Source: Actinomycetota bacterium
GTDB lineage: Bacteria; Actinomycetota; Acidimicrobiia; IMCC26256; PALSA-610
Direction: 5' to 3'
Assembly (NCBI GenBank): GCA_003134555.1
Contig: PLBO01000151.1
Location: 97,817-161,816, forward strand
Length of the DNA: 64,000 bases
The notes beneath the pieces are model-generated. The model was not told the origin of the DNA and did no database searches. It saw nothing but the letters and a program-made list of their open reading frames with translations. Both the position numbers and the translations under genes were made by a program. Shown one piece after another: positions 17,364-19,738 of the stretch (positions within the stretch are counted from its first letter, which is position 1; every line of letters begins with the position of its first letter).

Positions 17364-17807
17364 GTGGGGCTCGTGACCGCGTTGTTGGTGATCGGCATCG
17401 CGTGCGCGATCGCGGCGTGGTTCGTCGTACGGGAGGCGGGCCGGATGGCCGCCGAACCGCCGCCGCCGGTGTTCGACCCCGAAGAGGCATACGAGTGGGT
17501 CGTCGAGCACCTGCCCGACGTCGCCGCCGCCACGCTGACGCCCGACGACGTGCGCCGGATTCTCGAGTTCCAGCTCGAGTACTTCCAACGCAAGGGTGTG
17601 ACGGGCAACGGCTCGTCGTCGCACCCGCCGGGCGATGTCGTCGTCGGCGGGGCCGAGACCGTCGAATACATCCTCGAACGGGCCCTGGCCACGGGGGAGG
17701 AGTATCTGCCCGAACAGGTGCACGCCGTCATCGAGACGCAGCTCGCGTACCTCCGGGCGATTGGCGCCATCGGACCTCCTGCCGGCGGCGGCGCCGCGCC
17801 CGCGTGA
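17364..17807 (+). CDS. Hypothetical protein with N-terminal membrane anchor
   Basis: 147-aa ORF with an N-terminal TM helix, an acidic globular part and typical GC3 bias. Confidence 0.75.
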   Translation: MGLVTALLVIGIACAIAAWFVVREAGRMAAEPPPPVFDPEEAYEWVVEHLPDVAAATLTPDDVRRILEFQLEYFQRKGVTGNGSSSHPPGDVVVGGAETVEYILERALATGEEYLPEQVHAVIETQLAYLRAIGAIGPPAGGGAAPA

Positions 17808-17887
17808 TGAGTCCGCTCGCAAAGAGTTCCACCGGCCGGCCGGATCTGCTACAAATTTGCTACCGGAGAAAGGAGGTGGTCCATCAG

Positions 17888-17929
17888 ATGCACGATAAAT
17901 CTGGGACTTCGGAGGTGCACGGCCGCTAG
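17888..17929 (+). CDS. Small ORF MHDKSGTSEVHGR (13 aa)
   Basis: ATG directly behind an exceptionally strong SD. The stop sits within the ACGGCC-GCTA-GGCCGT hairpin. Confidence 0.5.
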   Translation: MHDKSGTSEVHGR

Positions 17930-18042
17930 GCCGTCGTTCTCGACTGGACCACCTTGCGGAATCCAAACCGCTGCACCACCGTCGTAGCTGCCGGCAATGG
18001 TCCCACTGGCACATAGGCGCGACGGGTCCGAATCAGTCGAAC

Positions 18043-18080
18043 GAACGGGGGGTGCTTCGGCGCCCCCCGTTCACCTTTTC
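18043..18080 (+). terminator. Intrinsic terminator
   Basis: GAACGGGGGGTGC-TTCG-GCGCCCCCCGTTC 13-bp stem (one G-U) with a cUUCGg loop, followed by ACCTTTTC. Confidence 0.8.
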
Positions 18081-18109
18081 GGCTTCGGGCAACAGTAGAT
18101 TCCGCGCGC

Positions 18110-18346
18110 ATGGCCCGGCCCGCGCACTTCGAGCATTACCGCTACCTCGGCGACAAGCGTTCGCAGGTCGTGTACGACCTCGATCTCTACGGCGTCGATC
18201 CCGCCGTGACCGCCGCCGTCGACGGAGTGCTCGCCTCCGAGCGCTTCGTCGCGATCTCGCCCCACACCCTTGCCGAGGCGCGCAACCGGGGTTATCGCCC
18301 GCATCGATCGATCCGCGCGCAGGCGGCGACCGACTCCGATTCTTAG
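18110..18346 (+). CDS. Small hypothetical protein
   Basis: 78 aa. TAGATT -10 lies 8 nt upstream. LAEARNRGYRP motif. Confidence 0.75.
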   Translation: MARPAHFEHYRYLGDKRSQVVYDLDLYGVDPAVTAAVDGVLASERFVAISPHTLAEARNRGYRPHRSIRAQAATDSDS

Positions 18347-18972
18347 GGCTCGGTCGGGTTCCAGCACTCCGCGGGCAGCGCGTCGCGGATGCCCTTGTGC
18401 TTGGCCTCGAACGCGACGTCGGAGAGCACCAGCTCGGACGGCAGCGTCGCGGGGTCGTCCGGGAGCTCGTCGTAGGTGACCCACGAGGTGCAACCGCCGT
18501 ACTCGTCCTTCCAGGGCGCGGCGACGGGCTCGGCGAGCCGGTGCGCGCGCAGCACGAGCACCCACAGCGGGTCGCGCCGCTTCCACTTGAACCTCGACTC
18601 CACGTAGTCGCGCGCCCATACGAGCTTGGAATCGAGCGCGTCGAGATGCTCGGGCTCGGTGATCGTCGCGACGTCGACGATGTCGGCCCAGCCGTGGACG
18701 GTGATCGGTTGGCCGACGGGTGATGCGTCGGCCAGATCGACCCAATGGGCGTATGCCGGCTTGAGCAATCCGGCCTGTTGGTGCTCGGCAGTGGGCGAGA
18801 GCCAGAACCGCCGGGACGTGAGACCGAAGTGGCGCCCGTCCTCGTGCAGCCCGCCTTTGCGGATGTCGACGATCTGCTCGCCCTCGAGGAGTGCGTGAAC
18901 GATCGCCGCCCACTCTTTGAGCGCGGGGGACTTCGACGCGGCAGTGCCCTGGTTCGTGGTCGAGGCGGTCAC
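18343..18972 (-). CDS. DUF1802 family protein
   Basis: ALKEWA, IRKGGLHE, F.L.PT.EHQ and YGGCTSW motifs. TATCCT -10 lies 7 nt before GTG 18972. Confidence 0.85.
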   Translation of the reverse strand: MTASTTNQGTAASKSPALKEWAAIVHALLEGEQIVDIRKGGLHEDGRHFGLTSRRFWLSPTAEHQQAGLLKPAYAHWVDLADASPVGQPITVHGWADIVDVATITEPEHLDALDSKLVWARDYVESRFKWKRRDPLWVLVLRAHRLAEPVAAPWKDEYGGCTSWVTYDELPDDPATLPSELVLSDVAFEAKHKGIRDALPAECWNPTEP

Positions 18973-18994
18973 GCGGGCCAGGATAACCACCGAC

Positions 18995-19738
18995 ATGGAA
19001 GAGCTCGTCTCGGAAGGACTGCGCCTCGGAGCGCATTTCGCGCGTCCGGCCGGCGTCACACGGGTGCCCGGACTGCTCGTGCTTCCCGGATTTCCTCGCG
19101 GCACCGGTGGCGCCGCGGCGCTCGGGAACACCGATCAGACCCTGTGCGATCGCATCGCGCGCGAATCGGGCTGGGCCGGCCTCACCTTCACCTTCCGGGG
19201 GACCGGCCCGTCGGCCGGCGATTTCTCGATCGAGGGCTGGCTCGCCGACGTGCGCGCCGCGGTCGACGCCCTGCACGCGCGTACCGACGTCACAGGGGTC
19301 TGGATCGCGGGGTTTCGTCTCGGCGGGACGCTCGCGCTCGTCGTGGCCGCCGACGACGAGCGAGTGCGCGGCATCGCGACCTTCGCCGCGCCCGCGTCGC
19401 TGCGGACCTGGGTGCGCGAGCCCGCGTGGTTCCTCGAGTACGCGCGCCGAACGGGCGTGTTGCGTACGCCGGAATTTCCGACCGATCCCGAAGCGTGGAT
19501 CCGGGCAATCGCGAATCTCGATCCGATCGCGGCCGCGCGACGCATCGGGCCTCGACCCTGGCTGCTCGTGCACGGCAGTGCCGACGACGTCGTCCCGGTC
19601 GACGACGCGCGGCGGCTGGCCGATGCGGGCGGAGACTGCGTCGATCTGCGGATCGTGGCGAACGGTCCGCACCGCCTGCGTCACGACCCCCGAGCGATCG
19701 CGGCACTGCTCGGGTGGCTCGACCGTCAGGAGCCCTGA
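18995..19738 (+). CDS. Alpha/beta hydrolase fold protein (nucleophile position is Arg)
   Basis: FRGTGPSAG, GFRLGG elbow, VHGSADDVV, GPH. Confidence 0.85.
   Translation: MEELVSEGLRLGAHFARPAGVTRVPGLLVLPGFPRGTGGAAALGNTDQTLCDRIARESGWAGLTFTFRGTGPSAGDFSIEGWLADVRAAVDALHARTDVTGVWIAGFRLGGTLALVVAADDERVRGIATFAAPASLRTWVREPAWFLEYARRTGVLRTPEFPTDPEAWIRAIANLDPIAAARRIGPRPWLLVHGSADDVVPVDDARRLADAGGDCVDLRIVANGPHRLRHDPRAIAALLGWLDRQEP

Follow-up and report, generated by a model that had tools for sequence, protein, structure and literature searches.

A diverged Ms_IGR-5 family small RNA with an extended Shine-Dalgarno sequence and a 13-codon ORF in an Acidimicrobiia genome

The closest described counterpart of the element reported here is rreB of the Bradyrhizobiaceae (Hahn et al.), a 165-nt mRNA that joins a 17-nt complement of the 16S rRNA tail to a 14-codon open reading frame (ORF) (PMC5711450; statements on this and the other papers cited refer to their accessible portions). 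The rreB transcript co-sediments with 30S subunits, is weakly translated because of its long Shine-Dalgarno (SD) sequence and GTG start, and depends on its start codon for stability, being stabilized when this codon is removed; in the accessible text, rre-like genes were reported only in alpha-proteobacteria, Caulobacterales included (PMC5711450). The small RNA (sRNA) family Ms_IGR-5 (Rfam RF02471) is represented by homologues with ribosome-protected reads in two mycobacteria (PMC4974804), by a mapped sRNA transcription unit in Streptomyces avermitilis (PMC8780764) and by an entry marked as RNA-seq-validated in S. lividans (PMC8079986); the accessible parts of these three papers gave no recorded function for it. 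Here we analyzed a 64,000-nt stretch of an Actinomycetota genome of the class Acidimicrobiia (assembly GCA_003134555.1, contig PLBO01000151.1), hereafter the window, with positions counted from its first letter. A gap of 302 nt between two plus-strand ORFs (17364-17807 and 18110-18346) holds a small RNA with an extended SD and a 13-codon ORF, which we refer to as the window RNA.

The window RNA shares its general design with rreB and rreR. All are stand-alone small mRNAs (165 nt for rreB, approximately 215 nt for the window RNA) with their own promoter and terminator, the promoter in the window being putative. In each, 16-17 nt are complementary to the entire 3' tail of 16S rRNA, a short ORF is present (14 or 18 codons, compared with 13 in the window), and the SD is partly enclosed by a hairpin that leaves its 5' seed free. 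The genomic surroundings are conserved only within a family. The combination used to recognize rre genes, at least 16 nt of 16S complementarity directly upstream of a short ORF in a stand-alone transcript, is found in the window RNA. In contrast to the rre genes, where the complementarity runs into the GTG start, 4 nt separate it from the ATG here; the window RNA belongs to a different phylum and has no sequence similarity to the rreB/rreR group beyond the SD, as judged from CC2171, the only Rfam relative of that kind. Three features of the window RNA go beyond the rre design: the junction helix P4, the internal anti-SD and a further SD-like motif. What was demonstrated for rreB, namely 30S binding and weak translation, is expected by analogy for the window RNA. 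Both the RNA family and the extended-SD mini-mRNA design were already known; the comparison suggests that the same design may have arisen in two distant phyla.

A further resemblance was found to CC2171 (RF01867), a Caulobacter sRNA to which the window RNA gave a partial match of 16.7 bits compared with a cut-off of 75. The CC2171 consensus begins GAAAGGAGGUGAUCCA and ends in a terminator hairpin, and the RF02471 and CC2171 consensus sequences both begin GAAAGGAGGUG.UCC. In contrast to a family match, the alignment covers only the SD and a G+C-rich hairpin and skips 105 model positions. Judged on this alignment, CC2171 is an analogue and not a homologue.

Assignment to the Ms_IGR-5 family

When the whole window was searched against Rfam at the gathering threshold, no match was returned. 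A permissive search revealed a full-length match to RF02471, a family reportedly first described in Mycobacterium smegmatis, with 19.9 bits against a cut-off of 45 and E-values of 0.014 on 401 bases and 0.039 on the whole genome; the alignment joins positions 1-184 of the model to 17862-18032. Within a sample of 151 genomes of the phylum, RF02471 matched 49 at E ≤0.01, of which 19 exceeded the cut-off. The scores form an unbroken range between 186 and 22 bits; those of four genomes belonging to the class of the window lie at 23-38 bits. The SD, the ORF with its E-V pair and stop, the AAUCC motif and the CACC partner of the window RNA are shared with all 30 RF02471 loci compared. These phylum tallies and 30-locus counts include the unpublished genomes G041, G058, G088, G160, G122 and G128 and loci L052 and L062.

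The search was also run in the reverse direction with a covariance model (R1) built from the order-level comparison set, which consists of the window and 29 loci of the same order (30 sequences); 22 of the 30 were used, eight near-identical same-genus rows being dropped. R1 matched 30/30 RF02471 loci at their SD with 17-50 bits, including the 19 over the cut-off, and gave one 13-bit match on seven unrelated control loci. On whole genomes R1 matched 61 of 151. Both models matched 41 genomes, with an identical 5' end in each, while 8 genomes were found by RF02471 only and 19 by R1 only, so that at least one of the two models finds the family in 69 of the 151 sampled genomes, the window genome included. 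In family f30, RF02471 found none of eight genomes and R1 found six (up to 80 bits); the Rfam seed therefore does not represent this branch. These searches show that RF02471 as it stands under-detects the window's side of the family and misses whole families. All genomes but one gave a single family match; the exception, G061 (family f29), has two with both models, on contigs C17 (3902-4104) and C126 (9255-9458).

The window RNA and the RF02471 copies agree in the 5' AC, in an SD of 16-17 nt and in an ORF of 12-14 codons whose E-V pair precedes the stop by three codons; they also share P1, P2 and P4, the AAUCC motif, a 3' hairpin with a GUCC-type loop and a single copy per genome. The best-scoring RF02471 copies differ in having a TTG start (ATG in the window) and 12 codons instead of 13, and they lack the internal anti-SD and the P6 hairpin of the window copy; compared with RF02471 copies elsewhere, the neighboring genes also differ. 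On this evidence the window RNA is a diverged member of Ms_IGR-5 by homology and not by the Rfam score criterion. The earlier note on this DNA, which was made from the letters alone, could not assign the RNA to a family and took a known Rfam family as removing its novelty. The full-length permissive match and the reciprocal model searches supply that assignment, and part of the novelty is removed by a match that lies below the gathering threshold. The full-text literature searched, coverage of which is incomplete, held no paper connecting Ms_IGR-5 with rre, with a small ORF or with an extended SD, and such a link may be in print; the partial supplements of PMC9094748 held no relevant match to the mycobacterial-type peptide ending. 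The family is widespread in actinobacterial lineages, with mycobacteria and streptomycetes among its carriers (PMC4974804, PMC8780764, PMC8079986).

A DNA search within the order located the element in 36 of 41 genomes (the window genome included), in an intergenic position and with 73-97% DNA identity. In the same genus it was present in 19 of 20 other genomes at 89-97% identity; in other families of the order the identity was 73-84%, mostly over 17862-17984. The window genome holds a single copy.

Conserved 16S-tail pairing, ORF and fold

The 3' end of 16S rRNA reads ...CUGGAUCACCUCCUUUCU in three same-genus genomes and one same-order genome; a 16S gene search of the window's own assembly returned none. 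Against this tail the extended SD forms 16 Watson-Crick pairs and one G.U pair, with a computed duplex energy of -30.4 kcal/mol compared with -8.7 for GGAGG alone. The 17-mer occurs once in the window, where 0.07 matches with ≤3 mismatches would be expected, and its 12-nt core occurs twice in the 4.6-Mb genome, the second time inside a coding frame, which is a chance match. Conservation was assessed on 60 copies, comprising the window, the 29 order loci and the 30 RF02471 loci. Taking the 16S tail to be the same throughout, 53 of these pair with it at 17/17 positions (Watson-Crick or G.U) and the other 7 at 16/17; the substitutions seen in the SD are mostly purine-for-purine opposite U. This pattern of substitution shows, at the sequence level, that selection acts on 16S-tail pairing of the SD. 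The sole G.U pair with 16S involves G17879, which is G in 57/60 copies and pairs with C both in helix P2 and in the internal anti-SD; it would fit a base chosen to serve both partners.

The ORF follows the SD closely, with the complementarity ending at 17883 and the ATG at 17888. An in-frame ORF of 12-14 codons with the same end point was present in all 60 copies. Its stop is TAG in 50, TGA in 6 and TAA in the remaining 4, with no sense codon at this place in any copy. Start codons vary more widely (ATG 34, CTG 10, TTG 9, GTG 4, ATT 2, ATA 1). The E-V pair, encoded by GAGGUG, stands exactly three codons before the stop in 60/60 copies. The peptide hardly varies within the order (MHD..GT.EV.GR), where CAC/CAT and ACT/ACC exchanges are synonymous. 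Across the phylum, conservation is lost at residues 2-6 and in the N-terminal half, and codon 8, which encodes S, L, R, C, P or E, varies jointly with the 5' leader. Every conserved codon of the ORF also sits in a conserved helix or SD-like motif, and selection on the peptide and on the RNA are therefore indistinguishable. The alignment shows selection on the stop codon, and with the stop position fixed in 60/60 copies and only TAG, TGA and TAA exchanged, translation of the ORF appears to matter.

The GAGGUG of the second SD-like motif is invariant in the 30 order-level copies, and the motif holds the same ORF position in 60/60. In the window (17911-17929) 11 nt separate the second GGAGG from the stop codon, which equals the spacing from the first GGAGG to the ATG; the last sense codon would fall 8 nt from the second GGAGG. 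The 16S tail of a terminating ribosome could perhaps re-pair at this second GGAGG.

Of 200 shuffles of a 236-nt stretch holding the RNA, only 1 was not surpassed in folding by the native sequence (z -3.8). In the order-level alignment the conserved fold (elements in Table 1) has 96.3% of cells paired overall, and 12 of its pairs show changes on both sides, compared with 6.1 in shuffles and ≤4 when partners are slid by 1-3 columns. P1 (helix 2-6/47-51) has 96% of cells paired within the order and two pairs with two-sided changes; across the phylum each of the three pairs in its middle occurs as 4-6 standard pair types, and 57-58 of 60 copies are paired there. P2 is paired in 30/30 order-level sequences and in 54-58/60 copies per position across the phylum. 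Within the genus P3 is retained; in other copies its register differs (60-97% of cells paired per pair). P4 has 99.4% of cells paired within the order, where pair 58/114 is AU in 18, GU in 6 and GC in 5; in 54/60 copies its partner lies directly 3' of an AAUCC-like motif, with clear compensatory sets such as GGUGGCUGC with GCAGCCACC and GGUGACCGG with CCGGUUCACC. In the 3' hairpin, helix 135-138/150-153 is 100% paired with two-sided changes in two pairs within the order, and the loop UGGUCC (17998-18003) is invariant, as is GGACCA, its partner in the possible pseudoknot drawn in the earlier note; a GUCC-type loop is visible by eye, uncounted, in the phylum copies. The terminator stem has 98.1% of cells paired in the 30 sequences, and two-sided changes were seen in 5 of the 7 pairs counted. 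The alignments show covariation of P1, P2 and P4 across the phylum and of the terminator and 3' hairpin within the order, and with it selection on RNA structure, including helices that translation has to open.

In this fold a one-sided bulge flanked by P1 and P2 contains the initial 11-12 nt of the SD (GAAAGGAGGUG), and the start codon sits in the apical P2/P3 hairpin, with the ORF crossing four helices (P2, P1, P4 and P5). A competing arrangement is the minimum-energy fold of the window RNA, in which the SD is covered by the internal anti-SD; keeping the SD unpaired has a modelled cost of approximately 11 kcal/mol. The SD/anti-SD helix has 98.9% of cells paired across the 30 sequences. Its changes are all one-sided, to G.U, because the SD side never varies. 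Counting only partners better than all but ≤5 of 100 shuffles, an internal SD partner is present in 36/60 copies (23/30 in the order, 13/30 elsewhere). A second alternative, the long-range helix 17940-17950/18025-18039, is better than all but ≤10 of 200 shuffles in 17/30 sequences; covarying partners occur in some lineages (GCUGGA/UCCAGC, GCCGGA/UCCGGU), and other lineages have lost them.

Many of the elements had been proposed in the earlier note, and all of the strings and helices it named are present at their positions on the sequence. Its 17-nt match to the 16S 3' end agrees with the 16S of four relatives. The stand-alone structured RNA it described is borne out by the covarying terminator and the differing neighbors, and the competing helices it drew exist, as the near-complete pairing of the SD/anti-SD helix indicates. 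The long-range pairing stands in part, as a helix that beats shuffles in about half of the sequences and covaries in some lineages, and fails in the lineages that have lost it. The homologues and covariation that it proposed to look for were found, in 36/41 genomes of the order and in P1, P2 and P4, respectively. Conservation of the extended SD held in all 60 copies; that of the peptide held within the order and failed at residues 2-6 across the phylum.

Proposed mechanism and competing explanations

On balance we lean towards reading the window RNA as a 30S-capturing, self-masking mini-mRNA. A free 30S subunit would dock on the bulged SD, and the 16S-tail duplex could then zip through GUCC, opening P2 and P3; the duplex is computed at -30 kcal/mol, of which approximately 11 would be lost in keeping the SD unpaired. 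The 30S subunit would then be very tightly held, with initiation and clearance presumably poor owing to the very long SD helix and, in other lineages, to weak start codons. Ribosomes that do translate would have to unwind P2, P1, P4 and P5, halting at the conserved stop. In the window's order and several other families, the internal anti-SD could cover the SD instead. Occupancy, translation and probably stability of the RNA would signal or make use of the free 30S pool, and the peptide would be short-lived or secondary. The rreB parallel provides a testable hypothesis, in which a 17-bp SD helix captures the 30S subunit and translation and the RNA fold are mutually exclusive. We hold more tentatively, and with real doubt, the broader proposal that Ms_IGR-5, long classed simply as an sRNA, is as a whole a phylum-wide clamp for the 30S tail, a badly translated mini-mRNA that is self-masking in many lineages and independent of the alpha-proteobacterial rre. 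If true, an SD covering the whole tail combined with a mini-ORF would be a recurrent bacterial device for sensing or buffering free (or correctly 3'-matured) 30S subunits.

Several observations weigh against the 30S-capture reading and the assignments on which it builds. The steps of the mechanism are drawn by analogy with rreB, and for the window copy we infer 30S binding, transcript ends and translation alike. Growth was unaffected by overexpression of rreB, to which no function is ascribed (PMC5711450), so the analogy supplies a mechanism and not a role. The only in-frame start is CTG, ATT or ATA in 13/60 copies, where translation may therefore be absent. The SD/anti-SD helix lacks covariation proper, and the search for an internal partner exceeding shuffles found none in seven copies (L035-L038, L040-L042), among them the four with the highest RF02471 scores; the internal anti-SD is not universal, and self-masking is therefore not the core mechanism of the family. 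The RF02471 score of the window copy lies far under the gathering cut-off, and the pairing counts rest on a 16S tail known from 4 genomes and assumed identical in the other 56. Expression is favored by metatranscriptome contigs of 48-279 nt (four libraries, four studies), which fall within 17831-18078 at 90-99% likeness and so place the element in RNA libraries; they show neither ends nor strand, in a type of library that can hold DNA, and some begin approximately 25-30 nt upstream of the proposed start, at 17831 and 17838. The four libraries gave no contig on 18084-18400 and almost none on 17700-17819, and the uncovered part is not evidence.

Among the alternatives, an ordinary small protein gene, in which the 13-residue peptide is the product and the long SD drives strong translation, accounts for the frame and length kept in 60/60 copies, for a stop that varies only among stop codons and for a peptide that is near-constant within the order with synonymous changes. 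We nevertheless consider it unlikely, as residues 2-6 are unconserved across the phylum and residue 8 tracks the 5' leader, as an RNA helix would; 13/60 copies start only with CTG, ATT or ATA; each conserved codon also lies within a conserved helix or SD-like motif; and an extended SD lowers translation in rreB (PMC5711450). Still less probable is a trans-acting sRNA whose C-rich segments resembling the 16S tail (UGGACCACCUU and UGCACCACC) bind the SDs of other mRNAs while its own SD and ORF mask them. Two anti-SD-like segments are present (17945-17955 and 17972-17980), the second conserved phylum-wide as the P4 3' strand, and the 6C RNA family has been described as using C-rich loops. Against this, it is the SD itself, not the anti-SD, that is most conserved, the first anti-SD is missing in several families, and no target emerged, though no search aimed at one was made.

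Two further explanations were rejected. A role in cis, as leader or attenuator for the 78-codon gene that follows (18110-18346), would agree with the same strand, the distance of 31 nt and the adjacency of the two in 27/29 order loci; it is made very improbable by the strong covarying terminator that ends the RNA, by the conserved TAGATT of the downstream gene itself, and by the phylum loci, where that gene is adjacent in 0/30 and a convergent gene follows the RNA in several. Leader-peptide attenuators are short translated ORFs that remodel downstream RNA helices, and translating the window ORF would similarly unwind P2, P1, P4 and P5 of necessity. In contrast to such attenuators, the window family shares no regulated downstream gene and its terminator is apart from the switching helices. 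A type I toxin-like mRNA, one of the options of the earlier note, would have the short ORF, sequestered SD and structured stand-alone RNA seen here, and we give it practically no weight: the 13-residue peptide MHDKSGTSEVHGR is hydrophilic with no hydrophobic stretch and an N-terminal half unconserved across the phylum, the RNA occupies a syntenic chromosomal site across the order with one copy per genome, and neither an antisense partner nor a second copy in the genome was seen. The other two options raised there, a 30S-binding RNA and a conditionally translated peptide, both stay candidates and match the findings on rreB (PMC5711450).

Features of the locus and neighboring genes

The coordinates of the small RNA and its elements are given in Table 1. 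The 5' AC (columns 1-2) is invariant in the 30 order-level sequences, and position 1 of the RF02471 model aligns at 17862. As a promoter, the TACAAA hexamer would put the transcript start near A17862; the same site reads TACAAA, TACAAG, TAGGAA or TATCCA in the 29 order-level copies. A consensus promoter scan found none for the small RNA, nor at the -10 TAGATT of the next gene. The consensus terminator scan of the window did not flag the terminator of the small RNA because its U-tract is short.

Table 1. Elements of the small RNA and its surroundings in the window
Feature	Position	Strand	Remarks
-10-like hexamer TACAAA	17850..17855	+	TGC before (extended -10 type); sequence reading
Whole small RNA	17862..18079	+	~215 nt; invariant AC to end of terminator tail
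P1 5' strand CCGGA	17863..17867	+	pairs with UUCGG 17908-17912
Extended SD AGAAAGGAGGTGGTCCA (RNA AGAAAGGAGGUGGUCCA)	17867..17883	+	complement of last 17 nt of 16S rRNA
P2 5' strand GUCC	17879..17882	+	3' end of extended SD; pairs with GGAC 17904-17907
P3	17885-17889 with 17899-17903	+	continues P2 hairpin; includes part of start codon
13-codon ORF MHDKSGTSEVHGR and TAG stop	17888..17929	+	ATG 17888; TAG 17927-17929
3' strands of P2 (GGAC 17904-17907) and P1 (UUCGG 17908-17912)	17904..17912	+	in ORF codons 6-9
Second SD-like GGAGGUG	17911..17919	+	E-V codons; GAGGUG invariant
P4 5' strand GGUGCA	17914..17919	+	in second SD-like motif
P5, stop-codon hairpin ACGGCC-GCUA-GGCCGU	17919..17934	+	ACGGCC 17919-17924, GGCCGT 17929-17934; 94.6% of cells paired, no two-sided changes
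Internal anti-SD TGGACCACCTT (RNA UGGACCACCUU)	17945..17955	+	pairs with SD 17873-17883; computed -20.8 kcal/mol
P6 hairpin	17956..17971	+	GCGG 17956-17959/CCGC 17968-17971; loop motif GGAAUCC 17958-17964; 100% of cells paired
P4 3' strand UGCACC	17972..17977	+	anti-SD-like CACC
3' hairpin	17979..18025	+	CCGUCG 17979-17984/CGACGG 18020-18025; UGCCGG 17989-17994/CUGGCA 18006-18011
3' partner of alternative long-range helix, GGUCC..CAGUCGA..GAACG	18025..18047	+	pairs with 17935-17950
Terminator hairpin	18043..18079	+	13-bp G+C-rich stem 18043-18055/18060-18072; UUCG loop; tail ACCUUUU

The genes beside the RNA were compared between the order and the phylum. In the 29 order loci the flanks hold a 147-aa upstream protein in 29, a 78-aa downstream protein in 27 and a convergent DUF1802 gene in 27, whereas none of these three genes was found beside the 30 phylum loci. 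There, the Pfam content varies by family: a class IV aminotransferase with a THAP4-type domain, GCV_T with LmeA, MDMPI, or a DNA ligase with an acyl-CoA dehydrogenase (120 of 150 ORFs were scanned, the fifth-longest ORF of each locus being dropped). Since the neighbors differ between families, the small RNA is a stand-alone gene.

The 147-aa protein (17364-17807) has a hydrophobic N-terminus and lies directly upstream in 29/29 order loci with 52-92% identity; Pfam and NCBIfam gave no family for it or for the 78-aa downstream protein. The 78-codon ORF (18110-18346, plus strand) begins 31 nt past the small RNA. Its candidate -10, TAGATT at 18096-18101, lies 8 nt before the ATG, a distance that suggests a leaderless or nearly leaderless mRNA. 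The earlier note had assigned the next gene a -10 of its own, and this holds to the extent that TAGATT recurs in many same-genus copies, with no counterpart in the promoter scan. The DUF1802 gene (18343-19131, minus strand) runs towards the 78-codon ORF, and the two share 4 nt at the stop of the latter. Short tandem repeats stand directly after the terminator in two same-genus genomes (L004, approximately 1745-1790; L017, approximately 1745-1810), with a 12-nt unit repeated 3-4 times in one genome and a unit of approximately 16 nt in the other.

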